From assembly GCF_001677475.2 (NCBI RefSeq), contig NZ_CP015229.1: a stretch of 64,000 nt of DNA; one strand, 5' to 3'. Positions 28,716 through 47,464 of the stretch are shown one piece after another. Source of the stretch: Escherichia coli. GTDB lineage: Bacteria; Pseudomonadota; Gammaproteobacteria; Enterobacterales; Enterobacteriaceae. How positions within the stretch are numbered: the first letter of the stretch is position 1; the number at the start of each line of letters is the position of its first letter. The notes beneath the pieces are model-generated. The model saw only the letters and a program-made list of their open reading frames with translations. It did not search any database and was not told the DNA's origin. The position numbers and the translations under genes were made by a program.

Positions 28716-30107
28716 ATGAGTCACTCATCTGCCCCCGAAAGGGCTACTGGAGCTGTCATTACAGATTGGCGACCGGAAGATCCTGCGTTCTGGCAACAAC
28801 GCGGTCAACGTATTGCCAGCCGCAACCTGTGGATTTCCGTTCCCTGTCTGCTGCTGGCGTTTTGCGTATGGATGTTGTTCAGCGCTGTTGCGGTGAACTT
28901 ACCGAAAGTCGGTTTTAATTTTACGACCGATCAGCTATTTATGTTGACTGCGCTGCCTTCGGTTTCTGGCGCGTTATTACGTGTTCCATACTCCTTTATG
29001 GTTCCTATCTTCGGTGGTCGTCGCTGGACGGCGTTCAGCACCGGTATTCTGATTATTCCTTGCGTCTGGCTGGGTTTTGCCGTGCAGGATACCTCCACGC
29101 CTTATAGCGTCTTCATCATCATCTCTCTGCTGTGCGGCTTTGCTGGCGCGAACTTCGCCTCCAGTATGGCAAACATCAGCTTCTTCTTTCCGAAACAGAA
29201 GCAGGGTGGCGCTCTGGGCCTGAATGGTGGTCTGGGCAACATGGGCGTCAGCGTCATGCAGTTGGTTGCTCCGCTGGTGGTATCACTGTCGATTTTCGCA
29301 GTATTTGGTAGCCAGGGCGTCAAACAGCCGGATGGGAGTGAGCTGTATCTGGCGAATGCGTCCTGGGTATGGGTGCCGTTCCTTGCCATCTTCACCATTG
29401 CGGCGTGGTTTGGCATGAACGATCTTGCTACCTCGAAAGCCTCCATCAAGGAGCAGTTGCCGGTACTCAAACGGGGTCATCTGTGGATTATGAGCCTGCT
29501 GTATCTGGCAACCTTCGGTTCCTTCATCGGCTTCTCCGCAGGCTTTGCGATGCTGTCAAAAACGCAGTTCCCGGATGTTCAGATTCTGCAATACGCTTTC
29601 TTCGGGCCGTTTATTGGTGCGCTGGCGCGTTCTGCAGGTGGTGCATTATCTGACCGTCTTGGCGGAACTCGTGTCACGCTGGTGAACTTTATTCTGATGG
29701 CAATTTTCAGCGGCCTGCTGTTCCTGACCTTACCGACTGACGGGCAGGGCGGAAGCTTCATGGCGTTCTTCGCGGTCTTCCTGGCGCTGTTCCTGACAGC
29801 TGGGCTGGGTAGTGGTTCCACTTTCCAGATGATTTCCGTGATCTTCCGTAAACTGACAATGGATCGCGTGAAAGCAGAAGGGGGTTCTGACGAACGTGCG
29901 ATGCGTGAAGCGGCAACCGACACGGCGGCGGCGCTGGGTTTCATCTCTGCGATTGGCGCGATTGGTGGCTTCTTTATCCCGAAAGCGTTCGGTAGCTCGC
30001 TGGCATTAACGGGTTCGCCAGTCGGCGCAATGAAAGTATTTTTGATTTTTTATATCGCCTGCGTAGTGATTACCTGGGCGGTATATGGTCGGCATTCTAA
30101 AAAATAA
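28716..30107 (+). CDS. narK: nitrate/nitrite antiporter NarK (MFS)
   Basis: ORF 28710..30107; ATG at 28716 gives MSHSSAPERATGAVITDWRPEDPAFW..., 463 aa. Confidence 0.95.
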   Translation: MSHSSAPERATGAVITDWRPEDPAFWQQRGQRIASRNLWISVPCLLLAFCVWMLFSAVAVNLPKVGFNFTTDQLFMLTALPSVSGALLRVPYSFMVPIFGGRRWTAFSTGILIIPCVWLGFAVQDTSTPYSVFIIISLLCGFAGANFASSMANISFFFPKQKQGGALGLNGGLGNMGVSVMQLVAPLVVSLSIFAVFGSQGVKQPDGSELYLANASWVWVPFLAIFTIAAWFGMNDLATSKASIKEQLPVLKRGHLWIMSLLYLATFGSFIGFSAGFAMLSKTQFPDVQILQYAFFGPFIGALARSAGGALSDRLGGTRVTLVNFILMAIFSGLLFLTLPTDGQGGSFMAFFAVFLALFLTAGLGSGSTFQMISVIFRKLTMDRVKAEGGSDERAMREAATDTAAALGFISAIGAIGGFFIPKAFGSSLALTGSPVGAMKVFLIFYIACVVITWAVYGRHSKK

Positions 30108-30130
30108 ATCTTAATATTTGATTATCCTTT

Positions 30131-30157
30131 GCGCGGCATGATGTCGCGCTTTTTTTA
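30131..30157 (+). terminator. rho-independent terminator after narK (GCGCG stem + TTTTTTT)
   Basis: Hairpin and U-run 25-50 nt after narK stop. Confidence 0.75.
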
Positions 30158-30231
30158 TACGTCATTTAGTTACAACATACTAATGTTATATGGTTTATTT
30201 CGCCGGATTTCATTAAGAGCCATTAATATGT

Positions 30232-30261
30232 TACCCATGGGGAATACTCCTTAATACCCAT
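30232..30261 (+). promoter_or_regulatory. cluster of NarL heptamers (TACCCAT, TACTCCT, TACCCAT) upstream of narG
   Basis: Three TACYYMT-like heptamers about 240-270 nt upstream of narG start. Confidence 0.5.
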
Positions 30262-30394
30262 CTGCATAAAAATCTTAATAGTTTAAATAACTACAAGTAT
30301 AAAACGTCTTAATTTACAGTCTGTTATGTTGTGGCTGTTAATTATCCTAAAGGGGTACCTTAGGAATTTACTTTATTTTTCATCCCCATCACTC

Positions 30395-30408
30395 TTGATC
30401 GTTATCAA
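30395..30408 (+). promoter_or_regulatory. FNR box TTGAT-CGTT-ATCAA of narG promoter
   Basis: Perfect FNR consensus about 95 nt upstream of narG ATG. Confidence 0.7.
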
Positions 30409-30499
30409 TTCCCACGCTGTTTCAGAGCGTTACCTTGCCCTTAAACATTAGCAATGTCGATTTATCAGAGGGCCGACAGGCTCCCACAGGAGAAAACCG

Positions 30500-33400
30500 A
30501 TGAGTAAATTCCTGGACCGGTTTCGCTACTTCAAACAGAAGGGTGAAACCTTTGCCGATGGGCATGGCCAGCTTCTCAATACCAACCGTGACTGGGAGGA
30601 TGGATATCGCCAGCGTTGGCAGCATGACAAAATCGTCCGCTCTACCCACGGGGTAAACTGCACCGGCTCCTGCAGCTGGAAAATCTACGTCAAAAACGGT
30701 CTGGTCACCTGGGAAACCCAGCAGACTGACTATCCGCGTACTCGCCCGGACCTGCCAAACCATGAACCTCGCGGCTGCCCGCGCGGTGCCAGCTACTCCT
30801 GGTATCTTTACAGTGCCAACCGCCTGAAATACCCGATGATGCGCAAACGCCTGATGAAAATGTGGCGTGAAGCGAAGGCGCTGCATAGCGATCCGGTTGA
30901 GGCATGGGCTTCTATCATTGAAGACGCCGATAAAGCGAAAAGCTTTAAGCAGGCGCGTGGACGCGGTGGTTTTGTTCGTTCTTCCTGGCAGGAAGTGAAC
31001 GAACTGATCGCCGCATCTAACGTTTACACCATCAAAAACTACGGCCCGGACCGTGTCGCTGGTTTCTCGCCAATTCCGGCAATGTCGATGGTTTCTTACG
31101 CATCGGGTGCGCGCTATCTCTCGCTGATTGGCGGTACTTGCTTAAGCTTCTACGACTGGTACTGCGACCTGCCTCCTGCGTCTCCGCAAACCTGGGGCGA
31201 GCAAACTGACGTACCGGAATCCGCTGACTGGTACAACTCCAGCTACATCATCGCCTGGGGTTCAAACGTGCCGCAGACGCGTACCCCGGATGCTCACTTC
31301 TTTACTGAAGTGCGTTACAAAGGCACCAAAACTGTTGCCGTCACACCAGACTACGCTGAAATCGCCAAACTGTGCGATCTGTGGCTGGCACCGAAACAGG
31401 GCACCGATGCGGCAATGGCGCTGGCGATGGGCCACGTAATGCTGCGTGAATTCCACCTCGACAACCCAAGCCAGTATTTCACCGACTATGTTCGTCGCTA
31501 CACCGACATGCCGATGCTGGTGATGCTGGAAGAGCGCGACGGTTACTACGCCGCGGGTCGTATGCTGCGCGCTGCCGATCTGGTGGATGCGCTGGGCCAG
31601 GAAAACAATCCGGAATGGAAAACTGTCGCCTTTAATACCAATGGCGAAATGGTTGCGCCGAACGGTTCTATTGGCTTCCGCTGGGGCGAGAAGGGCAAAT
31701 GGAATCTTGAGCAGCGCGATGGCAAAACTGGCGAAGAAACCGAGCTGCAACTGAGCCTGCTGGGTAGCCAGGATGAGATTGCTGAGGTGGGCTTCCCGTA
31801 CTTTGGTGGCGACGGTACTGAACACTTCAACAAAGTGGAACTGGAAAACGTGCTGCTGCACAAGCTGCCGGTGAAACGCCTGCAACTGGCTGATGGCAGC
31901 ACCGCACTGGTGACCACCGTTTATGATCTGACGCTGGCAAACTACGGTCTGGAACGTGGCCTGAACGACGTTAACTGTGCAACCAGCTATGACGATGTGA
32001 AAGCTTACACCCCAGCCTGGGCTGAGCAGATCACCGGCGTTTCTCGCAGCCAGATTATTCGCATCGCCCGTGAATTTGCCGATAACGCTGATAAAACGCA
32101 CGGTCGTTCGATGATTATCGTCGGTGCGGGGCTGAACCACTGGTATCACCTGGACATGAACTATCGCGGTCTGATCAACATGCTGATTTTCTGCGGCTGT
32201 GTCGGTCAGAGCGGGGGCGGCTGGGCGCACTATGTAGGTCAGGAAAAACTGCGTCCGCAAACCGGCTGGCAGCCACTGGCGTTTGCCCTTGACTGGCAGC
32301 GTCCGGCGCGTCACATGAACAGCACTTCTTATTTCTATAACCACTCCAGCCAGTGGCGTTATGAAACCGTGACTGCGGAAGAACTGCTGTCGCCGATGGC
32401 GGATAAATCCCGTTATACCGGACACCTGATCGACTTTAACGTCCGTGCAGAACGCATGGGCTGGCTGCCGTCTGCACCGCAGTTAGGCACTAACCCGCTG
32501 ACTATTGCTGGCGAAGCAGAAAAAGCGGGCATGAATCCGGTGGACTATACGGTGAAATCCCTGAAAGAGGGTTCAATCCGTTTTGCTGCGGAACAGCCGG
32601 AAAACGGCAAAAACCATCCGCGTAACCTGTTTATCTGGCGTTCTAACCTGCTGGGCTCTTCCGGTAAAGGTCATGAGTTTATGCTCAAGTACCTGCTGGG
32701 GACGGAACACGGTATCCAGGGTAAAGATCTGGGGCAGCAGGGCGGCGTGAAGCCGGAAGAAGTGGACTGGCAGGACAATGGTCTGGAAGGCAAGCTGGAT
32801 CTGGTGGTGACGCTGGACTTCCGTCTGTCGAGCACCTGTCTCTACTCCGACATCATTTTGCCGACGGCGACCTGGTACGAAAAAGACGACATGAATACTT
32901 CGGATATGCATCCGTTTATTCACCCGCTGTCTGCGGCGGTCGATCCGGCCTGGGAAGCGAAAAGCGACTGGGAAATCTACAAAGCTATCGCGAAGAAATT
33001 CTCCGAAGTGTGCGTTGGTCATCTGGGTAAAGAAACCGACATCGTTACGCTGCCAATTCAGCACGACTCCGCCGCTGAACTGGCGCAGCCGCTGGATGTG
33101 AAAGACTGGAAAAAAGGCGAATGCGATCTGATCCCAGGTAAAACCGCACCGCATATTATGGTGGTTGAGCGTGATTATCCGGCCACTTACGAACGCTTTA
33201 CCTCAATCGGCCCGCTGATGGAGAAAATCGGCAACGGCGGTAAAGGGATTGCCTGGAACACCCAGAGCGAAATGGATCTGCTGCGTAAGCTCAACTACAC
33301 CAAGGCTGAAGGTCCAGCGAAAGGCCAGCCGATGCTCAACACCGCAATTGATGCGGCAGAGATGATCCTGACGCTGGCACCGGAAACCAATGGTCAGGTA

Positions 33401-34243
33401 GCTGTAAAAGCCTGGGCTGCCCTGAGCGAGTTTACCGGCCGTGACCATACGCATCTGGCGCTGAATAAAGAAGACGAGAAGATTCGCTTCCGCGATATTC
33501 AGGCACAGCCGCGCAAAATTATCTCCAGCCCGACCTGGTCTGGTCTGGAAGATGAACACGTTTCTTACAACGCCGGTTACACCAACGTTCACGAGCTGAT
33601 CCCGTGGCGTACGCTCTCTGGTCGTCAGCAGCTGTATCAGGATCATCAGTGGATGCGTGATTTCGGTGAAAGCCTGCTGGTTTATCGTCCGCCGATCGAT
33701 ACCCGTTCGGTGAAAGAAGTGATGGGCCAGAAATCCAACGGTAACCCGGAAAAAGCCCTGAACTTCCTGACGCCACACCAGAAGTGGGGTATCCACTCCA
33801 CTTACAGCGACAACCTGCTGATGCTGACTTTAGGTCGCGGTGGGCCTGTGGTCTGGCTGAGCGAAGCCGATGCTAAAGATTTGGGTATTGCCGACAACGA
33901 CTGGATTGAAGTCTTCAACAGCAACGGTGCGTTGACTGCCCGTGCGGTTGTCAGCCAGCGTGTTCCGGCAGGGATGACCATGATGTACCACGCGCAGGAA
34001 CGTATCGTTAACCTGCCTGGTTCGGAAATCACGCAGCAGCGTGGGGGGATTCATAACTCGGTCACCCGTATCACGCCGAAACCGACGCATATGATCGGTG
34101 GCTATGCCCATCTGGCATACGGCTTTAACTACTACGGCACCGTAGGTTCTAACCGCGATGAGTTTGTTGTGGTGCGTAAGATGAAGAACATTGACTGGTT
34201 AGATGGCGAAGGCAATGACCAGGTACAGGAGAGCGTAAAATGA
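30500..34243 (+). CDS. narG: respiratory nitrate reductase A, alpha subunit
   Basis: 1247 aa, MSKFLDRFRYFKQKGETFADGHGQ..., molybdopterin oxidoreductase. Confidence 0.97.
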   Translation: MSKFLDRFRYFKQKGETFADGHGQLLNTNRDWEDGYRQRWQHDKIVRSTHGVNCTGSCSWKIYVKNGLVTWETQQTDYPRTRPDLPNHEPRGCPRGASYSWYLYSANRLKYPMMRKRLMKMWREAKALHSDPVEAWASIIEDADKAKSFKQARGRGGFVRSSWQEVNELIAASNVYTIKNYGPDRVAGFSPIPAMSMVSYASGARYLSLIGGTCLSFYDWYCDLPPASPQTWGEQTDVPESADWYNSSYIIAWGSNVPQTRTPDAHFFTEVRYKGTKTVAVTPDYAEIAKLCDLWLAPKQGTDAAMALAMGHVMLREFHLDNPSQYFTDYVRRYTDMPMLVMLEERDGYYAAGRMLRAADLVDALGQENNPEWKTVAFNTNGEMVAPNGSIGFRWGEKGKWNLEQRDGKTGEETELQLSLLGSQDEIAEVGFPYFGGDGTEHFNKVELENVLLHKLPVKRLQLADGSTALVTTVYDLTLANYGLERGLNDVNCATSYDDVKAYTPAWAEQITGVSRSQIIRIAREFADNADKTHGRSMIIVGAGLNHWYHLDMNYRGLINMLIFCGCVGQSGGGWAHYVGQEKLRPQTGWQPLAFALDWQRPARHMNSTSYFYNHSSQWRYETVTAEELLSPMADKSRYTGHLIDFNVRAERMGWLPSAPQLGTNPLTIAGEAEKAGMNPVDYTVKSLKEGSIRFAAEQPENGKNHPRNLFIWRSNLLGSSGKGHEFMLKYLLGTEHGIQGKDLGQQGGVKPEEVDWQDNGLEGKLDLVVTLDFRLSSTCLYSDIILPTATWYEKDDMNTSDMHPFIHPLSAAVDPAWEAKSDWEIYKAIAKKFSEVCVGHLGKETDIVTLPIQHDSAAELAQPLDVKDWKKGECDLIPGKTAPHIMVVERDYPATYERFTSIGPLMEKIGNGGKGIAWNTQSEMDLLRKLNYTKAEGPAKGQPMLNTAIDAAEMILTLAPETNGQVAVKAWAALSEFTGRDHTHLALNKEDEKIRFRDIQAQPRKIISSPTWSGLEDEHVSYNAGYTNVHELIPWRTLSGRQQLYQDHQWMRDFGESLLVYRPPIDTRSVKEVMGQKSNGNPEKALNFLTPHQKWGIHSTYSDNLLMLTLGRGGPVVWLSEADAKDLGIADNDWIEVFNSNGALTARAVVSQRVPAGMTMMYHAQERIVNLPGSEITQQRGGIHNSVTRITPKPTHMIGGYAHLAYGFNYYGTVGSNRDEFVVVRKMKNIDWLDGEGNDQVQESVK

Positions 34244-35778
34244 AAATTCGTTCACAAGTCGGCATGGTGCTGAATCTCGATAAGTGCATCGGCTGCCACA
34301 CCTGTTCAGTTACCTGTAAAAACGTCTGGACCAGCCGCGAAGGCGTGGAATACGCGTGGTTCAACAACGTGGAAACCAAGCCGGGCCAGGGCTTCCCTAC
34401 TGACTGGGAAAACCAGGAAAAATACAAAGGTGGTTGGATCCGTAAAATCAACGGCAAACTGCAACCGCGCATGGGTAACCGAGCCATGCTGCTGGGTAAA
34501 ATCTTCGCTAACCCGCATCTGCCGGGGATCGACGATTATTACGAGCCGTTCGATTTTGATTATCAGAACCTGCATACCGCGCCGGAAGGCAGCAAATCGC
34601 AGCCGATTGCCCGTCCGCGTTCGCTGATTACTGGCGAACGGATGGCGAAAATCGAAAAAGGGCCGAACTGGGAAGATGACCTGGGCGGCGAGTTTGACAA
34701 ACTGGCGAAAGACAAGAACTTCGACAACATCCAGAAGGCGATGTATAGCCAGTTCGAAAACACCTTCATGATGTATTTGCCGCGTCTGTGCGAACACTGC
34801 CTCAACCCGGCATGTGTGGCGACCTGTCCGAGCGGGGCTATCTACAAACGTGAAGAAGATGGCATCGTACTGATCGATCAGGATAAATGCCGTGGCTGGC
34901 GTATGTGCATCACCGGATGCCCGTACAAAAAAATCTACTTCAACTGGAAGAGCGGTAAATCTGAGAAGTGCATCTTCTGCTATCCGCGTATTGAAGCCGG
35001 TCAGCCGACGGTGTGCTCAGAAACCTGTGTGGGTCGTATCCGTTATCTTGGCGTGCTGTTGTACGATGCCGACGCTATTGAACGTGCAGCCAGCACCGAG
35101 AACGAGAAAGATCTCTACCAGCGTCAGCTGGAAGTGTTCCTCGACCCGAACGATCCGAAAGTCATCGAGCAAGCGATTAAAGACGGTATTCCGCTGAGCG
35201 TTATTGAAGCCGCACAACAGTCGCCGGTGTATAAAATGGCGATGGAATGGAAACTGGCGCTGCCGCTGCATCCGGAATATCGCACATTGCCGATGGTCTG
35301 GTACGTGCCGCCTCTGTCACCGATTCAGTCTGCGGCAGACGCGGGCGAACTGGGCAACAACGGCATTTTGCCAGACGTAGAAAGCCTGCGTATCCCGGTT
35401 CAGTACCTGGCGAATCTGCTGACCGCCGGTGATACCCAACCGGTACTGCTCGCGTTGAAACGTATGCTGGCAATGCGTCATTACAAACGAGCTGAAACCG
35501 TTGACGGTAAAGTTGATACCCGTGCGCTGGAAGAGGTCGGCCTGACCGAAGCCCAGGCACAGGAGATGTACCGTTATCTGGCAATTGCAAACTACGAAGA
35601 TCGCTTTGTGGTGCCGAGTAGCCATCGTGAACTGGCGCGGGAAGCCTTCCCGGAGAAAAATGGTTGTGGCTTTACCTTTGGTGACGGCTGCCACGGTTCA
35701 GATACCAAATTCAATCTGTTCAACAGCCGTCGTATCGATGCCATCGACGTGACCAGTAAAACGGAGCCGCATCCATGA
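34240..35778 (+). CDS. narH: respiratory nitrate reductase A, beta subunit (Fe-S)
   Basis: 512 aa with Cys clusters (CIGCHTCSVTC...); ATGA overlap with narG. Confidence 0.97.
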   Translation: MKIRSQVGMVLNLDKCIGCHTCSVTCKNVWTSREGVEYAWFNNVETKPGQGFPTDWENQEKYKGGWIRKINGKLQPRMGNRAMLLGKIFANPHLPGIDDYYEPFDFDYQNLHTAPEGSKSQPIARPRSLITGERMAKIEKGPNWEDDLGGEFDKLAKDKNFDNIQKAMYSQFENTFMMYLPRLCEHCLNPACVATCPSGAIYKREEDGIVLIDQDKCRGWRMCITGCPYKKIYFNWKSGKSEKCIFCYPRIEAGQPTVCSETCVGRIRYLGVLLYDADAIERAASTENEKDLYQRQLEVFLDPNDPKVIEQAIKDGIPLSVIEAAQQSPVYKMAMEWKLALPLHPEYRTLPMVWYVPPLSPIQSAADAGELGNNGILPDVESLRIPVQYLANLLTAGDTQPVLLALKRMLAMRHYKRAETVDGKVDTRALEEVGLTEAQAQEMYRYLAIANYEDRFVVPSSHRELAREAFPEKNGCGFTFGDGCHGSDTKFNLFNSRRIDAIDVTSKTEPHP

Positions 35779-36485
35779 TCGAACTCGTGATTGTATCGCG
35801 TCTCCTTGAATATCCGGATGCTGCCTTATGGCAGCATCAACAAGAGATGTTTGAGGCGATTGCCGCGTCGGAAAATCTGTCAAAAGAGGATGCCCATGCG
35901 CTGGGCATTTTCCTGCGCGATTTAACGGCGATGGATCCGCTCGATGCTCAGGCCCAGTACAGCGAACTGTTCGATCGTGGTCGCGCCACGTCGCTGTTGC
36001 TGTTTGAGCACGTTCACGGGGAATCCCGCGATCGCGGTCAGGCGATGGTGGACCTGCTGGCACAGTACGAGCAGCACGGTTTGCAGTTAAACAGCCGCGA
36101 ATTGCCGGACCACCTGCCGCTGTATCTGGAGTATCTGGCGCAGCTGCCGCAAAGCGAAGCCGTGGAGGGTTTGAAAGATATTGCGCCGATTCTGGCATTG
36201 CTGAGCGCGCGTCTGCAACAGCGTGAAAGCCGTTATGCCGTGCTGTTTGATCTGCTGCTGAAACTGGCCAATACCGCTATCGACAGTGACAAAGTGGCGG
36301 AAAAAATTGCCGACGAAGCGCGCGACGATACGCCGCAGGCGCTGGATGCTGTCTGGGAAGAAGAGCAGGTTAAATTCTTTGCTGACAAAGGCTGCGGTGA
36401 TTCAGCAATCACTGCTCATCAGCGTCGCTTTGCCGGTGCCGTCGCGCCGCAATATCTGAATATCACCACCGGAGGACAGCACTAA
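35775..36485 (+). CDS. narJ: nitrate reductase assembly chaperone NarJ
   Basis: 236 aa; overlaps narH stop. Confidence 0.95.
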
Positions 36486-37162
36486 TGCAATTCCTGAATA
36501 TGTTCTTCTTTGATATCTACCCGTACATAGCCGGGGCGGTCTTCCTGATTGGTAGCTGGCTGCGTTATGACTACGGGCAGTACACCTGGCGCGCGGCGTC
36601 CAGCCAGATGCTGGATCGCAAAGGGATGAACCTGGCGTCGAACCTGTTCCATATCGGTATTCTGGGGATTTTTGTCGGTCACTTCTTCGGTATGCTGACG
36701 CCGCACTGGATGTATGAAGCCTGGCTGCCGATTGAAGTGAAACAGAAAATGGCGATGTTTGCTGGTGGTGCCAGCGGCGTGCTGTGTCTGATTGGCGGCG
36801 TGCTGTTGCTGAAACGTCGTCTGTTCAGCCCACGCGTGCGTGCAACGACTACCGGAGCGGATATCCTGATCCTGTCTCTGCTGGTTATCCAGTGCGCTCT
36901 GGGCTTGCTGACCATTCCGTTCTCCGCCCAGCATATGGACGGTAGCGAGATGATGAAACTGGTTGGCTGGGCGCAGTCGGTAGTGACCTTCCACGGTGGC
37001 GCTTCTCAACACCTTGATGGTGTGGCGTTTATCTTCCGTCTGCACCTGGTGCTGGGGATGACGTTATTCTTGCTGTTCCCGTTCTCACGTCTGGTGCACA
37101 TCTGGAGCGTACCGGTGGAGTATCTGACACGTAAGTATCAGCTGGTGCGCGCTCGTCACTAA
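36485..37162 (+). CDS. narI: respiratory nitrate reductase A, gamma subunit (cytochrome b)
   Basis: 225 aa, five TM helices; 1-nt overlap with narJ. Confidence 0.95.
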
Positions 37163-37183
37163 GCGAATTTTAGTTTGCATAGA

Positions 37184-37206
37184 CCCCGCTTCGGCGGGGT
37201 TTTTTT
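37184..37206 (+). terminator. rho-independent terminator of narGHJI (CCCCGC-TTCG-GCGGGG + TTTTTTT)
   Basis: Perfect 6-bp GC stem with tetraloop, 7 T, 22 nt after narI stop. Confidence 0.85.
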
Positions 37207-37227
37207 ATGGGCACGGTACGGGGTGAG

Positions 37228-37290
37228 TTGTCGGATGCGCTTCGCTTATCCGACCTACAGGGGAGGATATTGTAGGTCCGGTAAACGCGG
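37228..37290. repeat. REP/BIME-like palindromic element
   Basis: GTCGGATGCGCTTCGCTTATCCGACCTACA facing inverted partner TGTAGGTCCGGTAAACGCGGTGCC. Confidence 0.45.
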
Positions 37291-37346
37291 TGCCATTGGG
37301 CAGAATTAGCTCGGAGTAACAGGTTTTGAGTATTTACAGGAAGTGA

Positions 37347-37880
37347 TGGTGGTGGGGGAAGGATTACTCAGCGCTGCGTGCTTCACCCTTCGGGTCGTTG
37401 CCTGCGGCAACGCTCTCTCGCTGGCGCTCGAGTCGAACCTTGGTCGAAGCTTCTCATCCTTCCCCGCTTGGGCAGAATATTTAATTACGGATTCGTTTGA
37501 GAGTTCAGGGACTTTTGAAAGTTATGGTGGTGGGGGAAGGATTACTCAGCGCTGCGCGCTTCGCCCTTCGGGTCGTTGCCTGCGGCAACGCTCTCTCGCT
37601 GGCGCTCGAGTCGAACCTTGGTCGAAGCTTCTCATCCTTCCCCGCTTGGGCAGAATATTTAATTACGGATTCGTTTGAGAGCTCAGGGACTTTTGAAAGT
37701 GATGGTGGTGGGGGAAGGATTACTCAGCGCTGCGTGCTTCACCCTTCGGGTCGTTGCCTGCGGCAACGCTCTCTCGCTGGCGCTCGAGTCGAACCTTGGT
37801 CGAAGCTTCTCATCCTTCCCCGCTTGGGCAGAATATTTAATTACGGATTCGTTTGAGAGTTCAGGGACTTTTGAAAGTGA
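37347..37880 (-). repeat. three tandem 178-bp repeats in the distal tyrT operon (rtT/tpr region), each beginning with 19 nt identical to the tRNA-Tyr 3' end
   Basis: Units at 37347, 37525, 37703; next period at 37881 is the tRNA gene; partial degenerate copy at about 37321-37346. Confidence 0.9.
37546..37635 (-). CDS. tpr: Tpr-like Arg-rich 29-aa peptide ([29 protein letters not shown]) in the middle repeat
   Basis: Hand-translated minus-strand ORF; the same frame in the two flanking repeats stops after 24 aa. Confidence 0.5.
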
Positions 37881-37965
<85 letters not shown>

Positions 37966-38007
37966 ACGGGGTAATGCTTTTTACTGGCCTGCTCCCTTAT
38001 CGGGAAG

Positions 38008-38043
38008 CGGGGCGCATCATATCAAATGACGCGCCGCTGTAAA
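38008..38043 (-). promoter_or_regulatory. tyrT promoter: -35 TTTACA, 16-bp spacer, -10 TATGAT, GC-rich discriminator GCGCCCCGC
   Basis: Minus strand reads TTTACAGCGGCGCGTCATTTGATATGATGCGCCCCGCTTCCCGATAAGGG; predicted start about 43 nt upstream of mature tRNA 5' end. Confidence 0.8.
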
Positions 38044-38124
38044 GTGTTACGTTGAGAAAAATGAACTGGTTGCGTAATTTTCATCCGTAACGGATTAAAG
38101 GTAACCAGTTATTTTTGCTGGCGA

Positions 38125-38967
38125 TTAAAGAATAATCGTCCGATTACCGTAAACAAAGACGCGCTGCGCCAGTACTTTGTAGAGCGCGCGACTTAAGACG
38201 TTTTTCTCGACGTCACGACCTGCGCGCATCATATCTTCAGCTGTGTAGGTATGATCGACATGAATAACGTCCTGCATGATGATTGGGCCTTCGTCCAGAT
38301 TGTCATTCACATAGTGAGCGGTTGCGCCAATAATCTTCACGCCACGTTCATAGGCCTGGTGATAAGGACGTGCGCCGATAAACGCTGGCAGGAATGAATG
38401 GTGAATATTGATGATTTTATTCGGGAAGCGCGCCACAAATTCCGGCGTTAATACCCGCATATATTTCGCCAGCACCACGTAGTCAGGTTGATAAGCATCA
38501 ATGGCGTCCGCCATCTTTTGATCGTGCTCGTTGCGGCTTAACCCTTCATGGCTTACCAGCTCAAACGGAATATCAAAACGCTCAACCAGAGAACGTAAAG
38601 TATCGTGGTTACCAATAACTGCCGCGATTTCGACATCCAGGCCGCCGTAATTGGCTTTCATCAACAAATCGCCAAGGCAATGCGCTTCTTTCGTGACCAG
38701 AATCACTATCCGGCGACGACCGGCAGGATTCAGCTCACGCACGGAGCCTTCTGGCAATGCGCTATCGAGATCCGCCAGCAGGGTGGAATCATTAAAAATC
38801 CCTTCCAGTTCCGTGCGCATAAAAAAGCGCCCGGTACGGTGATCAACAAATTCATTGTTCTGCACGATATTTAACTCGTGCTTGTAGCAAATATTGGTAA
38901 TACGTGCGATCAGACCTTTTTGGTCCGGACAAATAGTACGCAGAACTTTACGTTGGAGTGAATGCAT
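38125..38967 (-). CDS. purU: formyltetrahydrofolate deformylase
   Basis: 280 aa, ACT domain + formyltransferase domain. Confidence 0.95.
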   Translation of the reverse strand: MHSLQRKVLRTICPDQKGLIARITNICYKHELNIVQNNEFVDHRTGRFFMRTELEGIFNDSTLLADLDSALPEGSVRELNPAGRRRIVILVTKEAHCLGDLLMKANYGGLDVEIAAVIGNHDTLRSLVERFDIPFELVSHEGLSRNEHDQKMADAIDAYQPDYVVLAKYMRVLTPEFVARFPNKIINIHHSFLPAFIGARPYHQAYERGVKIIGATAHYVNDNLDEGPIIMQDVIHVDHTYTAEDMMRAGRDVEKNVLSRALYKVLAQRVFVYGNRTIIL

Positions 38968-39016
38968 TGCTGGAAAAACCTTGTTGAGAGTGTTTGCTAA
39001 ACCGTACCGTCAACCA

Positions 39017-39475
39017 TTATTGGCCGCAGCACTTTTTAAATTTTTTACCTGAACCACAAGGGCAGGGATCGTTGCGGCCAAACTGCGGACGTGTACCGTC
39101 AATATAGTACCATTGACCGTTTTCTTTCAAAAATCGCGAACGTTCAATTATTGCACCTGTTTTGCCACCTTCGGTAAATCGCGCAACAAAACTGACAAAT
39201 CCGATATTGTCGACGTCCTGCCAACAATGTTCAAATACGGTCAATCCCAACCATTCAGTATGCGCAAATCCGGCAATCAATTCGGCACGTAACGCCGCTG
39301 CTCCACAAGATGGATGCCAGGTCTTTATTAAATAATCTGCGTCTTGCATCACAAAAGCGCAGTAACGCGAACGCATGAGATGTTCTGGATCAGGTGCAAC
39401 CTTTTCACCAGACACATAAGGGTGGCAACATAGGCTATACTCGACAGCACTACCACAGGGACAAAGCTGAGACAC
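39017..39475 (-). CDS. ychJ: SEC-C motif protein YchJ (UPF0225)
   Basis: ORF 39017..39496; GTG start gives 152 aa; CPCGS...CC motifs at both ends. Confidence 0.8.
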
Positions 39476-39587
39476 AATTAATCTCCCTGGAAACAATAAC
39501 GGCGTATTAACCGCCTGAGTAGCACTATGTTAACCGAGCAGTAGCGATGTGGCTACGATTGCATTCCAGGGGAATCTTGCGGGAATA

Positions 39588-40493
39588 ATGAGAAAGATAA
39601 AAATAGGGCTGGCGCTGGGATCTGGCGCGGCGAGAGGTTGGTCGCATATTGGCGTTATTAATGCGCTAAAAAAAGTGGGTATTGAAATTGATATCGTTGC
39701 AGGATGTTCAATTGGTTCGCTGGTGGGCGCTGCCTATGCATGCGATCGATTATCTGCGCTGGAAGATTGGGTGACCTCTTTCAGTTATTGGGATGTTTTA
39801 CGCCTGATGGATCTCTCCTGGCAGCGCGGTGGGTTACTGCGCGGCGAGCGTGTCTTCAATCAATATCGCGAAATAATGCCGGAAACAGAGATCGAAAATT
39901 GTTCCCGTCGCTTCGCGGCTGTTGCCACCAATTTAAGTACGGGGCGTGAATTATGGTTTACTGAAGGCGATCTCCATCTTGCTATTCGCGCATCATGCAG
40001 TATTCCAGGACTAATGGCACCCGTTGCGCATAACGGCTACTGGCTGGTTGATGGGGCAGTAGTTAACCCAATTCCTATTTCCCTCACGCGTGCATTGGGT
40101 GCTGATATTGTGATAGCGGTCGACCTGCAGCACGATGCTCATTTGATGCAACAAGATCTGCTCTCCTTTAATGTCAGTGAAGAAAATAGCGAGAATGGTG
40201 ATTCTCTGCCGTGGCATGCGCGTCTGAAAGAAAGGTTGGGCAGCATAACGACACGTCGGGCGGTGACAGCGCCAACGGCAACAGAGATTATGACCACTTC
40301 TATCCAGGTGCTGGAGAACCGCCTTAAAAGGAACCGCATGGCAGGTGATCCGCCCGATATTCTGATTCAACCTGTTTGCCCGCAAATATCTACGCTTGAT
40401 TTCCATCGCGCGCACGCTGCCATTGCGGCTGGGCAGCTGGCAGTGGAAAAGAAAATGGACGAACTTTTGCCGTTGGTACGCACCAACATTTGA
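39588..40493 (+). CDS. rssA: patatin-like phospholipase RssA
   Basis: ORF 39549..40493; ATG at 39588 gives MRKIKIGLALGSGAARGWSHIGV..., 301 aa; GxSxG lipase motif. Confidence 0.85.
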   Translation: MRKIKIGLALGSGAARGWSHIGVINALKKVGIEIDIVAGCSIGSLVGAAYACDRLSALEDWVTSFSYWDVLRLMDLSWQRGGLLRGERVFNQYREIMPETEIENCSRRFAAVATNLSTGRELWFTEGDLHLAIRASCSIPGLMAPVAHNGYWLVDGAVVNPIPISLTRALGADIVIAVDLQHDAHLMQQDLLSFNVSEENSENGDSLPWHARLKERLGSITTRRAVTAPTATEIMTTSIQVLENRLKRNRMAGDPPDILIQPVCPQISTLDFHRAHAAIAAGQLAVEKKMDELLPLVRTNI

Positions 40494-40584
40494 CCAGAAT
40501 TTTTATCTACACTTAAGTTAATTCTGACAGGCGCAGGTGGCAATAGCATGCCACTATTGAGTAAAGCCAGTCAGGGGAGAGAAC

Positions 40585-41598
40585 ATGACGCAGCCATTGG
40601 TCGGAAAACAGATTCTCATTGTTGAAGATGAGCAGGTATTTCGCTCGCTTCTGGATTCGTGGTTTTCCTCATTGGGAGCGACAACGGTACTGGCGGCTGA
40701 TGGGGTGGATGCCCTTGAGTTGCTGGGAGGTTTCACTCCAGACCTGATGATATGTGATATCGCGATGCCACGAATGAACGGGCTTAAACTGCTGGAACAT
40801 ATACGCAACAGAGGTGACCAGACACCGGTTCTGGTGATATCTGCCACTGAAAATATGGCAGATATTGCCAAAGCGTTACGTCTGGGCGTTGAAGATGTTT
40901 TGCTGAAACCAGTTAAAGATCTGAATCGCTTGCGCGAGATGGTTTTTGCCTGTCTCTATCCCAGCATGTTTAATTCCCGCGTTGAGGAAGAGGAAAGGCT
41001 TTTTCGCGACTGGGATGCAATGGTTGATAACCCTGCCGCAGCGGCGAAATTATTACAGGAACTACAACCGCCGGTTCAGCAGGTGATTTCCCATTGCCGG
41101 GTTAATTACCGTCAATTGGTTGCCGCGGACAAACCCGGCCTGGTGCTTGATATTGCCGCACTTTCGGAAAACGATCTGGCATTTTATTGCCTTGATGTCA
41201 CCCGAGCTGGACATAATGGCGTACTTGCTGCCTTGTTATTACGCGCATTGTTTAACGGATTATTACAGGAACAGCTTGCACACCAAAATCAACGGTTGCC
41301 AGAGTTGGGCGCGTTATTGAAGCAGGTAAACCATTTACTCCGTCAGGCCAATCTGCCGGGGCAGTTTCCGCTATTAGTTGGCTATTATCATCGCGAACTG
41401 AAAAATCTCATTCTGGTTTCTGCGGGTCTGAATGCGACGTTAAATACCGGCGAACACCAGGTGCAAATCAGTAATGGTGTTCCGTTAGGCACTTTAGGTA
41501 ACGCTTATTTGAATCAATTGAGCCAGCGATGCGATGCCTGGCAATGCCAAATATGGGGAACCGGTGGTCGGCTGCGCTTGATGTTGTCTGCAGAATGA
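40585..41598 (+). CDS. rssB: RpoS-degradation adaptor/response regulator RssB
   Basis: 337 aa, N-terminal receiver domain, PP2C-like C-terminus. Confidence 0.95.
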   Translation: MTQPLVGKQILIVEDEQVFRSLLDSWFSSLGATTVLAADGVDALELLGGFTPDLMICDIAMPRMNGLKLLEHIRNRGDQTPVLVISATENMADIAKALRLGVEDVLLKPVKDLNRLREMVFACLYPSMFNSRVEEEERLFRDWDAMVDNPAAAAKLLQELQPPVQQVISHCRVNYRQLVAADKPGLVLDIAALSENDLAFYCLDVTRAGHNGVLAALLLRALFNGLLQEQLAHQNQRLPELGALLKQVNHLLRQANLPGQFPLLVGYYHRELKNLILVSAGLNATLNTGEHQVQISNGVPLGTLGNAYLNQLSQRCDAWQCQIWGTGGRLRLMLSAE

Positions 41599-41799
41599 GC
41601 AAACGATAACGCGGGCTAAATTTGCATTACCTGCTAATGTCGGCTGGTGGTACTATCGTCGCCATTCGTATAAGCAATTGTCTTAATTATGCTAACTCGC
41701 CTCCTTTTCAGAACTAAGCCCCTTCGGGGTGCTGATATACTGGGATGCGATACAGAAATATGAACACGTTCAAAACACGAACAGTCCAGGAGAATTTAA

Positions 41800-42708
41800 A
41801 TGGCTGCCATTAATACGAAAGTCAAAAAAGCCGTTATCCCCGTTGCGGGATTAGGAACCAGGATGTTGCCGGCGACGAAAGCCATCCCGAAAGAGATGCT
41901 GCCACTTGTCGATAAGCCATTAATTCAATACGTCGTGAATGAATGTATTGCGGCTGGCATTACTGAAATTGTGCTGGTTACTCACTCATCTAAAAACTCT
42001 ATTGAAAACCACTTTGATACCAGTTTTGAACTGGAAGCAATGCTGGAAAAACGTGTAAAACGTCAACTGCTTGATGAAGTGCAGTCTATTTGTCCGCCGC
42101 ACGTGACTATTATGCAAGTTCGTCAGGGGCTGGCGAAAGGCCTGGGACACGCGGTATTGTGTGCTCACCCGGTAGTGGGTGATGAACCTGTGGCTGTTAT
42201 TTTGCCTGACGTTATTCTGGATGAATATGAATCCGATTTGTCACAGGATAACCTGGCAGAGATGATCCGCCGCTTTGATGAAACGGGTCATAGCCAGATC
42301 ATGGTTGAACCGGTTGCTGATGTGACCGCATATGGTGTTGTGGATTGCAAAGGCGTTGAATTAGCGCCGGGTGAAAGCGTACCTATGGTTGGCGTGGTTG
42401 AAAAACCAAAAGCGGATGTTGCGCCGTCTAATCTCGCTATTGTGGGTCGTTACGTACTTAGCGCGGATATTTGGCCGTTGCTGGCAAAAACCCCTCCAGG
42501 AGCTGGTGATGAAATTCAGCTCACCGACGCAATTGATATGCTGATCGAAAAAGAAACGGTTGAAGCCTATCATATGAAAGGGAAGAGCCATGACTGCGGT
42601 AATAAATTAGGTTACATGCAGGCCTTCGTTGAATACGGTATTCGTCATAACACCCTTGGCACGGAATTTAAAGCCTGGCTTGAAGAAGAGATGGGCATTA
42701 AGAAGTAA
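41800..42708 (+). CDS. galU: UTP-glucose-1-phosphate uridylyltransferase
   Basis: 302 aa, [33 protein letters not shown]... Confidence 0.95.
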
Positions 42709-42733
42709 CATCCGTATTGGTGTTATCTACGAA

Positions 42734-42763
42734 ACGGCGTTGAGCAATCGACGCCGTTTTTTT
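42734..42763 (+). terminator. rho-independent terminator after galU (ACGGCGT...ACGCCGT + T7)
   Basis: Hairpin + U-run 26 nt after galU stop. Confidence 0.8.
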
Positions 42764-42799
42764 ATAGCTTATTCTTATTAAACTGTCTTAAACCGGACA

Positions 42800-42828
42800 A
42801 TAAAAAATCCCGCCGATGGCGGGATTTT
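42800..42828 (-). terminator. rho-independent terminator after hns (ATCCCGCC-ATC-GGCGGGAT + U-run)
   Basis: Perfect 8-bp stem, A6 on plus strand gives U6 on minus; about 25 nt past hns stop. Confidence 0.8.
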
Positions 42829-42851
42829 AAGCAAGTGCAATCTACAAAATA

Positions 42852-43265
42852 TTATTGCTTGATCAGGAAATCGTCGAGGGATTTACCTTGCTCATCCATT
42901 GCTTTTTTGATTACAGCTGGAGTACGGCCCTGGCCAGTCCAGGTTTTAGTTTCGCCGTTTTCGTCAACGTAGCTATATTTTGCCGGACGCTGAGCACGTT
43001 TAGCTTTGGTGCCAGATTTAACGGCAGCAAGGCTATTCAGCAGTTCGTTCGGGTCAATACCGTCAGCGATCAGCATTTCGCGATATTGCTGCAGTTTACG
43101 AGTGCGCTCTTCAACTTCAGCAGCAGCCGCGCTTTCTTCTTCGCGACGTTCGTTAACAACAACTTCTAATTTTTCCAGCATTTCTTCCAGCGTTTCAAGT
43201 GTACATTCTCTTGCCTGCGCACGAAGAGTACGGATGTTGTTCAGAATTTTAAGTGCTTCGCTCAT
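42852..43265 (-). CDS. hns: nucleoid-associated protein H-NS
   Basis: 137 aa, [41 protein letters not shown]... Confidence 0.97.
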
Positions 43266-43868
43266 TGTAGTAATCTCAAACTTATATTGGGGTGGTTTGT
43301 TGAGGTAATAATAGAGCCTTAAATTCAGTTGTGCAATAGCCAGGAATGTAAGGAATTCAAAATTGTTCTTTATTTTGTGCCGCCAATAAATATCTTTTCA
43401 TAAAATTAGCCAGAAAAGACGCGGCATATAGCCCTATTTGCACCGATGATTTCGCAGCACGTGAGGTTAAAACTTCCTGATTCATGTCACATTTTATGGG
43501 GAGATTATCGTAGGCTGACGACCTTTCAGTCTTCTGTATTAGTCGTGTTTACGAGAATTCCCTATTAAGCGAATGATGAAAAGTAGAACAGTCGCAATAC
43601 GAGCAGGGACTTAGTATTGCACTATCTCCTGGAGGTCAACAGAGGGCTATTACTTGCGCAACAGGTTAAAGATTGTGAATAGTTACCAGCAGTCATTTAC
43701 CCGCTTATAACAAGCGAGGCAGTTGTAATGATAGCTCAGAAGGATTATGCAAGGCTTCGTAAGGGAGAACGCATATACCACTTCTGTGCATACTGTTGAG
43801 CTGAAAAACTGACGAATTATGATAAACTCCAGCCAACTTTATTTCATATCATTGAGGGCCTGTGGCTG

Positions 43869-44486
43869 ATGGCACAGCTATATTTCTACTATTCCGCAAT
43901 GAATGCGGGTAAGTCTACAGCATTGTTGCAATCTTCATACAATTACCAGGAACGTGGCATGCGCACTGTCGTATATACGGCAGAAATTGATGATCGTTTT
44001 GGTGCCGGGAAAGTCAGCTCGCGTATAGGTTTGTCATCGCCTGCAAAATTATTTAACCAAAATTCATCATTATTTGATGAGATTCGTGCGGAACATGAAC
44101 AGCAGGCAATTCATTGCGTACTGGTTGATGAATGCCAGTTTTTAACCAGACAACAAGTATATGAATTATCGGAGGTTGTCGATCAACTCGATATACCCGT
44201 ACTTTGTTATGGTTTACGTACCGATTTTCGAGGTGAGTTATTTATTGGCAGCCAATACTTACTGGCATGGTCCGACAAACTGGTTGAATTAAAAACCATC
44301 TGTTTTTGTGGCCGCAAAGCAAGCATGGTGCTGCGTCTTGATCAAGCAGGCAGACCTTATAACGAAGGTGAGCAGGTGGTTATTGGTGGTAATGAACGCT
44401 ACGTTTCTGTATGCCGTAAACACTATAAAGAAGCGTTAGAAGTCGGCTCATTAACGGCTATTCAGGAAAGGCATCGCCACAATTAA
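43869..44486 (+). CDS. tdk: thymidine kinase
   Basis: 205 aa, P-loop NAGKST, Zn-ribbon cysteines. Confidence 0.95.
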
Positions 44487-44732
44487 TAAGAATTTCTTTA
44501 CTGACAGGGTGAGCAGGGCGCTTTTATCCTGTCAGTTCGTTTTACTCACTTCATCCGGTGTATATACCCTTCTCGACAGTTCTTTAACGCCACTATACCC
44601 CTCACAGAGCGCTTTTACAGTGACGTTGACTTGTGACCTGTAAAGTACAATATCGCTGTGTGTAGGCGTTATACATCGCCGTAAATATGATGAAGGCAAA
44701 TGCTGTCGGTTTATGGGAAAGTTGCTTTGGGT

Positions 44733-44765
44733 AAAACAAAAAAACGGCCCCAGAAGGGGCCGTTT
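44733..44765. terminator. bidirectional rho-independent terminator shared by convergent tdk and adhE (CGGCCCC-AGAA-GGGGCCG flanked by A12 and T3)
   Basis: Strong U-run on minus strand (adhE side), weaker on plus. Confidence 0.8.
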
Positions 44766-44788
44766 ATGTTGCCAGGCAGCGCTACTGA

Positions 44789-47464
44789 TTAAGCGGATTT
44801 TTTCGCTTTTTTCTCAGCTTTAGCCGGAGCGGCTTCTTTCTTCGCTGCAGTTTCGCCTTCTACATAATCACGACCGTAGTAGGTATCCAGCAGAATCTGT
44901 TTCAGCTCGGAGATCAGCGGGTAACGCGGGTTAGCGCCGGTGCACTGGTCATCGAATGCATCTTCAGACAGTTTATCCACGTTCGCCAGGAAGTCTGCTT
45001 CCTGAACGCCAGCTTCACGGATAGATTTCGGAATACCCAGTTCAGCTTTCAGCGTTTCCAGCCATGCCAGCAGTTTCTCGATCTTAGCAGCAGTACGGTC
45101 GCCCGGTGCGCTCAGACCGAGGTGGTCGGCAATTTCAGCATAACGACGGCGAGCCTGCGGACGGTCATACTGGCTGAATGCAGTCTGCTTGGTCGGGTTG
45201 TCGTTCGCATTGTAGCGAATAACGTTACAAATCAGCAGGGCGTTTGCCAGACCGTGCGGAATATGGAACTGGGAACCCAGTTTGTGCGCCATTGAGTGAC
45301 ATACACCCAGGAAGGCGTTCGCAAACGCGATACCCGCGATAGTTGCTGCACTGTGAACACGTTCACGCGCTACCGGATTTTTAGACCCTTCGTGGTAGGA
45401 CGCTGGCAGATATTCTTTCAGCAGTTTCAGTGCCTGCAGAGCCTGACCATCAGAGAACTCAGATGCCAGTACAGAAACATAAGCTTCCATGGCGTGGGTT
45501 ACTGCGTCCAGACCACCGAAAGCACACAGGGACTTCGGCATGTCCATAACCAGGTTGGCGTCGACAATCGCCATATCCGGGGTCAGCGCATAGTCCGCCA
45601 GCGGGTATTTCTGACCAGTAGCGTCGTCAGTTACAACCGCAAACGGAGTGACTTCAGAACCTGTACCAGAAGTGGTGGTGACAGCGATCATTTTCGCTTT
45701 CACGCCCATTTTCGGGAACTTGTAGATACGTTTACGGATATCCATAAAGCGCAGCGCCAGCTCTTCGAAGTGAGTTTCCGGATGTTCGTACATAACCCAC
45801 ATGATCTTCGCGGCATCCATCGGGGAACCACCACCCAGCGCGATAATCACGTCTGGTTTGAAGGAGTTTGCCAGTTCTGCACCTTTACGAACGATGCTCA
45901 GGGTCGGGTCCGCTTCTACTTCGAAGAAGACTTCAGTTTCAACGCCTGCTGCTTTCAGTACGGAAGTGATCTGATCAGCATAACCATTGTTGAACAGGAA
46001 GCGGTCAGTCACGATGAGCGCACGTTTGTGGCCATCAGTAATCACTTCATCCAGCGCGATTGGCAGGGAGCCACGGCGGAAGTAGATAGATTTCGGAAGT
46101 TTGTGCCACAACATGTTTTCAGCTCGCTTAGCAACGGTTTTCTTGTTGATCAGGTGTTTCGGACCAACGTTTTCAGAGATGGAGTTACCACCCCAGGAAC
46201 CACAACCCAGAGTCAGGGAAGGTGCGAGTTTGAAGTTATACAGGTCACCGATACCACCCTGAGAAGCCGGGGTGTTAATCAGGATACGAGCCGTTTTCAT
46301 TTTCTGACCGAAGTAAGAAACGCGTGCCGGTTGGTTATCCTGGTCAGTGTACAGGCAAGAGGTATGACCGATACCACCCATAGCAACCAGTTTCTCTGCT
46401 TTTTCTACCGCGTCTTCGAAATCTTTAGCGCGGTACATTGCCAGAGTCGGGGACAGTTTTTCATGTGCGAACGGTTCGCTTTCATCAACAACGGTCACTT
46501 CACCGATCAGAATCTTGGTGTTTTCTGGTACAGAGAAGCCTGCCAGTTCAGCAATTTTATAGGCTGGCTGACCAACGATAGCCGCGTTCAGTGCACCGTT
46601 TTTCAGGATAACATCCTGAACAGCTTTCAGCTCTTTACCCTGCAACAGATAGCCGCCGTGGGTTGCGAAACGTTCACGTACTGCGTCATAAACAGAGTCA
46701 ACAACAACAACAGACTGTTCAGAAGCACAGATTACGCCGTTGTCGAAGGTTTTCGACATCAGTACAGATGCAACTGCACGTTTGATATCAGCAGTTTCAT
46801 CAATAACAACTGGAGTGTTACCCGCGCCTACACCGATAGCTGGTTTACCGGAGCTGTATGCGGCTTTAACCATGCCCGGACCACCAGTCGCGAGGATCAG
46901 GTTGATGTCTGGGTGGTGCATCAGTGCGTTAGACAGTTCAACAGAAGGTTGATCGATCCAGCCGATCAGATCTTTCGGAGCACCGGCAGCGATAGCAGCC
47001 TGCAGAACGATATCAGCCGCTTTGTTGGTGGCATCTTTTGCACGCGGGTGCGGGGAGAAGATAATGGCGTTACGGGTCTTCAGACTGATCAGCGATTTGA
47101 AGATAGCAGTTGAAGTCGGGTTAGTGGTCGGAACGATACCGCAAATAATACCGATTGGTTCAGCGATAGTGATGGTACCAAAAGTGTCGTCTTCAGACAG
47201 AACACCACAGGTTTTTTCATCTTTATAGGCGTTGTAAATATATTCAGAAGCAAAGTGGTTTTTGATCACTTTATCTTCGACGATACCCATGCCGGATTCG
47301 GCAACGGCCATTTTCGCGAGTGGGATTCGAGCATCTGCAGCAGCCAGAGCGGCGGCGCGGAAGATTTTGTCTACTTGCTCTTGAGTGAAACTGGCATATT
47401 CACGCTGGGCTTTTTTTACACGCTCTACGAGTGCGTTAAGTTCAGCGACATTAGTAACAGCCAT
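44789..47464 (-). CDS. adhE: bifunctional aldehyde/alcohol dehydrogenase AdhE
   Basis: 891 aa, N-terminal ALDH domain and C-terminal iron-ADH domain. Confidence 0.97.

Follow-up and report, generated by a model that had tools for sequence, protein, structure and literature searches.

SgrS/SgrT and RNAIII/hld are dual-function small RNAs that also encode a small peptide, and in these systems the open reading frame (ORF) is conserved and translated. The 3'ETS of leuZ is a functional RNA from a tRNA-operon spacer, released by processing of the tRNA precursor. The RtT RNA of the tyrT operon can be set beside both kinds of system. A stable processed rtT RNA has been reported, and RtT has been described as a by-product of tyrT transcript processing that may play a part in the stringent response. 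In Klebsiella, an RNA-seq signal for RtT adjoining tRNA-Tyr has been reported, and one paper noted a similarity between rtT and BIME sequences. The feature itself is not new: descriptions of the locus, its repeats, the RNA and the ORF go back to the 1980s and 1990s, and the discovery value of our observations is correspondingly small.

An earlier note on this DNA had considered it unclear whether a 29-residue, arginine-rich peptide (Tpr), an RNA or both is the selected product of the repeats. Its description of one intact and two truncated copies of the Tpr frame was right, and the comparative data presented here resolve the question in favour of the RNA. Based on these data, we think it very likely that RtT units are selected as an RNA fold and that the 29-codon Tpr frame is a chance by-product of that fold, not a selected peptide.

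The tyrT locus and its three RtT units

Within the window, the whole 64,000-nucleotide stretch of Escherichia coli DNA that was analysed, the locus is the classical tyrT locus and its three repeats of 178 bp are RtT RNA units, which have long been known. According to the ORF list, it is flanked by narI on the distal side of the array (36485-37162, plus strand) and by purU on the other side (38125-38967, minus strand). A promoter scan found a sigma-70 promoter on the minus strand at 38016-38043 (TTTACA-16-TATGAT with TG ahead of the second hexamer, 10/12 matches), which, going by its sequence, we take to be the classical tyrT promoter. The sole tRNA-Tyr gene of the window (anticodon GUA; ARAGORN, Rfam tRNA 53.4 bits) occupies 37881-37965 on the minus strand, directly upstream of the array and on the same strand. 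Tandem Repeats Finder reported a single array at 37341-37899 (period 178, 3.1 copies, 97% matches, score 1090), which together with alignment amounts to 3.14 copies of the 178-bp unit on the minus strand. Every unit is closed by the last ~19 nt of tRNA-Tyr, AATCCTTCCCCCACCACCA, common to the tRNA and all three units, so that each has a tRNA-Tyr-like 3' end including CCA. All three match Rfam RF00391 over the full model (positions 1-130 of 130) and far above its gathering score of 45: the tRNA-proximal unit 3 (37703-37834) with 134.9 bits (E 3.4e-29), the middle unit 2 (37525-37656) with 137.1 bits (E 9.6e-30) and the distal unit 1 (37347-37478) with 134.9 bits, each on the minus strand. The earlier note was right in tying this region to a processed stable RNA, which is RtT, the processing itself being taken from the literature.

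On the distal side, the intrinsic terminator hairpin of narI (37181-37202, plus strand; terminator scan) forms the boundary of the locus. Weak Rfam matches near this terminator (rsmX, istR, STnc100, tmRNA) were all far under their thresholds and were taken as chance. Between the terminator and the last partial repeat, the stretch 37215-37300 resembles, by reading only, a REP/BIME-type palindromic element (gtcggatgcgcttcgcttatccgacctaca ... tgtaggtccgg). Of 5,426 complete E. coli genomes, the closest one over 30000-46000 of the window is only 97.9% identical, with hits in many different strains about equally distant; the DNA may come from a divergent Escherichia or Shigella lineage outside this collection.

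The ORF list agrees with the earlier note in that only the middle repeat keeps the full 29-codon 'tpr' frame, with start and stop codons, at 37546-37635 on the minus strand, while units 1 and 3 stop after 24 codons at a TGA in codon 25 (37383-37457 with its start at 37457, and 37739-37813 with its start at 37813; both minus strand). An exact look-up of the 29-aa product returned 'Protamine-like protein', AAC74313.2 (PRTL_ECOLI, b1229), in a cluster of nine members, all from E. coli; the product of unit 2 is identical to K-12 Tpr. Within the RtT core, units 1 and 3 are identical, and unit 2 differs from them at two sites only, both within 37557-37563 on the minus strand. The first is position 1 of codon 25, C/U in the RNA, which reads CGA in unit 2 vs TGA in units 1 and 3 (plus strand: G at 37563 vs A at 37385 and 37741). 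The second is position 1 of codon 27, G/A in the RNA, which reads GCG vs ACG (plus strand: C at 37557 vs T at 37379 and 37735) and lies in a 3' hairpin of the RNA. The earlier note had missed the codon-27 difference and had presented the codon-25 difference as a change from CGA to TGA. The difference itself stands, but its direction is not established, because both bases are widespread in that column across the family (C in 104 and U in 44 of 148 distinct units).

How unusual is an open frame of 29 codons in such a sequence? The plus strand at 37343-37974 carries open frames of 111, 119 and 99 aa, antisense to the repeats and to the tRNA gene. These frames are evidently spurious, and they are longer than Tpr. 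Given long frames of this kind in the same repeats, the 29-codon frame is not statistically remarkable.

Covariation and the tRNA-like end of RtT

Species-representative genomes were scanned with the conserved RtT motif, which yielded 95 loci (L010-L104) from Citrobacter, Enterobacter, Klebsiella, Salmonella, Raoultella, Kluyvera, Buttiauxella, Pantoea, Serratia, Xenorhabdus and others. The scan pattern demanded GGATGAGAA, which contains ATG, so that ATG is over-represented among units from other genera, where start codons were located by fuzzy matching. With nhmmer, 230 RtT-like stretches were found in the fetched loci, and units found by nhmmer alone have GTG, GTA, ACG, CTG or TTA at the place of the ATG. 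Of 85 loci from other genera, 69 have a tRNA-Tyr gene on the same strand no more than 100 nt upstream; 14 loci were cut before any tRNA. A contig labelled Chryseobacterium sp. 18061 carries two Enterobacteriaceae-type RtT units (L076, 2640-2947; 114-117 bits), which may reflect contamination or mislabelling. A weak RtT-like match (52 bits) was also seen outside the Enterobacterales, in a Cellvibrionaceae MAG (L031, 2937-3048).

The fold was analysed on an alignment, A2, of 148 distinct RtT units, 13 rows of which are from E. coli. RNAalifold predicts a closing helix, in which 5' GGGGAAGGAU pairs with the tRNA-like AUCCUUCCCC, and four internal hairpins. A further 3' hairpin (columns 105-109 with 120-124) was added to this structure by eye before the pairing test. 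Standard pairs make up 97.1% of cells, the added hairpin included, vs 39-50% when the partners are slid by 1-3 columns; 14 pairs are compensated, with changes on both sides, and none of 500 shuffles reached any of the observed measures. The secondary structure is thus supported by covariation among the 148 units. In the added hairpin, which is unpaired in the RF00391 consensus, all five pairs covary (105-124, for example, is GC in 97 units and AU in 43). In unit 2 this hairpin lies at 37538-37552 and has 5 bp (AGCGC-GCA-GCGCU in E. coli), with equivalents in units 1 and 3, and about 50 units of A2 carry tandem G.A/A.G mismatches in its middle. The long-range helix of Rfam is compatible with the alignment too: the whole Rfam structure is paired in 96.5% of cells, and this helix varies only by C/U opposite an invariant G. 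The internal hairpins share nothing with the tRNA, yet they covary across genera, which argues for selection on the folded RtT RNA.

We interpret RtT as a structured RNA of ~130 nt that would be co-transcribed from the tyrT promoter as a 3' trailer of tRNA-Tyr. The unit ends are tRNA terminal nucleotides, and tRNA-type end processing, as described in the literature, would release the stable RNA. Selection would act on the fold, that is, on the 10-bp closing helix with its tRNA-like 3' end and on the internal hairpins, and the Tpr frame would be an accident of a G+C- and CG-rich sequence, a composition that would also make the peptide arginine-rich.

The tRNA-like terminus varies together with the neighbouring gene. 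In about 113 of 125 units, the 3' 17 nt are those of the local tRNA-Tyr, and unit 3' ends copy local tRNA-Tyr variants such as TCCTTCCCCCGCCACCA and TCCTTCTCCCACCACCA, and so on, across L010-L104 (e.g. L059, L083 and L060). The Enterobacter ludwigii locus (L059) shows a compensated G-to-A/C-to-U change in the closing helix, where the unit matches the variant of its own tRNA-Tyr and the 5' strand is compensated. This tracking of the local tRNA-Tyr points to concerted evolution or to shared processing constraints. One could go further and propose that RtT is a functional mimic of the acceptor/T-arm end of tRNA-Tyr, whose 3' terminus and closing helix evolve in step with the adjacent tRNA gene and whose copy number (0 to 6 or more) tunes competition for tRNA-end-processing or tRNA-binding factors. 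We offer this as speculation and think it rather improbable; if true, the mimicry could provide a link to the reported stringent response effect. A weaker variant of the mimic idea would treat the E. coli-specific open frame as a young polymorphic ORF with low-level translation from the nascent transcript.

The same tracking is what recombination with the tRNA gene would be expected to produce, and it thereby favours a different explanation, namely that neither product is selected in trans. The repeats would then be a cis element of the tyrT operon (a spacer, processing or termination region), or they would be regenerated repeatedly by unequal crossing-over at the shared tRNA 3' end. The variable size of the array in E. 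coli agrees with this explanation. When 5,426 complete genomes were searched with the RtT unit, 4,699 had a match and 727 had none; the fetched arrays comprise one to six units, preceded by one or two tRNA-Tyr genes, and copy number among strains runs from 0 to 6 or more. Rfam also assigns RtT to the class 'Cis-reg'. On the other side are the published reports of a stable processed rtT RNA and of the Klebsiella RNA-seq signal, and the covariation of internal hairpins that have no counterpart in the tRNA, an observation that does not separate a cis from a trans role. Taken together, we regard an array selected for neither product in trans as distinctly unlikely.

The Tpr frame among strains and genera

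Is Tpr a real, translated protamine-like peptide of a dual-function RtT, with one intact copy kept per array and the truncated copies as decaying paralogues? Several observations favour this. The ORF has an ATG with a Shine-Dalgarno (SD)-like purine run ahead of it (GGGGAAGG, with GGGG 4 nt upstream of the ATG), it is annotated as 'Protamine-like protein' in K-12 and in other GenBank records, and of 4,701 matching records, 2,028 have as their best copy an ORF identical in every nucleotide, which amounts to at least 37% of complete E. coli genomes. The ORF counts come from a 90-nt ORF probe and from sampled loci; the probe replaced two 89-nt variant probes that were confounded by flanking polymorphisms. 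Twelve loci were sampled at even steps among the records whose best copy is not identical, and 8 of these lack an intact frame while 4 have an intact frame with missense changes. As a rough estimate, ~40-50% of complete E. coli genomes are without an intact frame, which weighs against a selected peptide.

The place of the intact copy is not fixed either. In the 21 E. coli loci that were fetched, an intact frame has 29 codons; shorter frames end after 24 or 9 codons where codon 25 or codon 10 reads TGA in place of CGA, or after 5 where codon 6 reads TAA in place of CAA. The earlier note had raised the prospect of an intact frame conserved in a specific repeat, and this was not found: the intact copy is the tRNA-proximal unit in K-12-type loci (L001, L003), the middle unit in the window and the distal unit in L109; L009 has three intact copies, and 11 of the 21 loci have none, among them those of C43(DE3) (L106) and of an O157:H7 strain (L107). 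Two tRNA-Tyr genes are present in 17 of the 21 loci, either directly in tandem or, in the K-12 type, with a diverged RtT copy between them whose start is GTG and not ATG; the window has one. Among the matching places in searches of complete E. coli genomes, 18 to 25 are plasmid-borne.

Substitutions within the frame do not resemble those of a gene. When 45 full-length E. coli units were compared, 18 sites of the 90-nt ORF proved variable: 13 are missense, 3 nonsense and only 2 synonymous, and codon positions 1, 2 and 3 hold 12, 4 and 2 of them. Judged from the sequences, this variation is the opposite of a coding pattern, and the codon-level conservation across strains that the earlier note had named as a mark of a selected frame is not seen. 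Nor does A2 show a third-position excess, column entropy by codon position 1/2/3 being 0.41/0.34/0.35, and in 85 of the 148 distinct units the net indel length inside the ORF span is not divisible by 3.

Outside E. coli the frame is mostly closed. A stop at codon 6 is present in 102 of 156 full-length units (84 loci, other Enterobacterales), and a frame of at least 29 codons, in any phase, is found in only 13 of the 84 loci from other genera. These long frames run in two different phases after codon 11, because the hairpin loop there varies between one and two nucleotides. Single units with the Tpr frame itself open occur in Raoultella planticola, Citrobacter freundii and a Klebsiella MAG. Six units combine all the 'open' states, vs 7.7 expected under independent assortment, so that there is no excess of open frames. 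The frame is thus conserved neither among strains nor among related species, and its substitutions show neither a synonymous nor a third-position excess.

The positions of the stop codons in the fold offer an explanation for this pattern. All three nonsense changes are C-to-U opposite a G, with pairing kept. The codon-6 site (column 40) pairs with G100 (UG in 105 units, CG in 42), the codon-10 site (column 55) with G68 (CG in 144, UG in 3) and the codon-25 site (column 102) with G37 (GC in 103, GU in 44). Closing the frame thus costs the RNA only the replacement of a G-C by a G.U pair, and 29- and 24-codon copies, opened and closed by C/U transitions that leave the pairing in place, would be equivalent as RNA. 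Predicted minimum free energies are close, at -49.7 kcal/mol for unit 2 and -49.9 kcal/mol for units 1 and 3. The codon-27 site behaves differently: where units 1 and 3 have A in place of G, the covarying 3' hairpin acquires an A.C mismatch (column 108 paired with 121), so that these copies are not strictly neutral as RNA. We also considered the codon-25 and codon-27 changes as a compensatory pair within a local hairpin (GCG-AAG-CGC vs GUG-AAG-CAC). This idea was rejected, as neither the Rfam nor the RNAalifold structure includes such a hairpin; the codon-25 site pairs with an invariant G across genera, and the codon-27 site belongs to a different covarying hairpin, where G-to-A gives the A.C mismatch.

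The start region of Tpr is also bound up with the fold. The purine run and the AUG both lie inside the 10-bp closing helix, whose predicted duplex energy is -18.6 kcal/mol, and in a folded 665-nt transcript thermodynamic prediction gives the SD-like stretch an unpaired probability of 0.005 or less in all three copies. With its start region buried in the predicted closing helix, mature RtT should not be translatable. In a nascent fragment without the 3' strand, the predicted unpaired probability of the SD-like stretch rises to 0.41, and that of the AUG is 0.23. This partial opening is a point in favour of a peptide, and low-level co-transcriptional initiation of Tpr from the nascent transcript is possible according to these predictions. 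A search of NCBIfam with the Tpr peptide returned no family, and a literature search found no report of its translation or detection. RefSeq labels such units in E. coli genomes 'RtT sRNA, processed from tyrT transcript' and has no CDS in the RtT units of the 21 E. coli loci fetched. Set against an intact frame that is missing from a large share of strains, shifts between repeats, is closed at codon 6 in the majority of units from other genera and starts within a predicted helix, the signals in favour of a selected Tpr peptide leave that explanation very improbable indeed.

Selection on the RtT fold, with Tpr as a by-product, also gives a simple account of the arrangement in the window. Array length and the order of variants would change by unequal recombination or gene conversion between units, a step that we infer because copy number varies and because units 1 and 3 are identical across the RtT core. 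Reshuffling of the C/U variants between units would then place the intact copy in the middle here. According to the comparative evidence, the differences in frame length between the repeats carry no biological message. For annotation, tpr (b1229) is better regarded as a fortuitous ORF within an RNA gene, in line with RefSeq. The RtT family model, for its part, could be refined with respect to the covarying 3' hairpin and the tracking of the local tRNA-Tyr by the unit 3' end.

Comparison with known systems

The closest relative of this locus is the described RtT/tyrT system itself, with which the window shares the locus, the 178-bp repeat, the full-length covariance-model matches, the site 3' of tRNA-Tyr and the tRNA-like 3' terminus. 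It differs in its layout. K-12-type loci carry two tRNA genes separated by a diverged RtT copy, while the window has a single tRNA-Tyr gene ahead of its three units; the variants also come in a different order. A difference from the Rfam description of the family lies in the 3' hairpin, which covaries here but stays unpaired in the Rfam consensus. As to Tpr/PRTL_ECOLI (b1229), the ORF of unit 2 encodes exactly the 29-aa K-12 sequence; however, the intact frame is tRNA-proximal in K-12-type loci and in the middle of the array in the window, and the comparative data give it no support as a protein-coding gene. RtT resembles SgrS/SgrT and RNAIII/hld in that a short ORF lies within a structured stable RNA, and departs from them in that most homologues have a disrupted ORF and that the start of the frame is enclosed in a conserved helix. 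With the 3'ETS of leuZ, RtT shares release from a tRNA precursor by processing, which for RtT is known from the literature. Unlike that spacer RNA, RtT is tandemly repeated and mimics a tRNA 3' end, and the likeness drawn here is one of origin.
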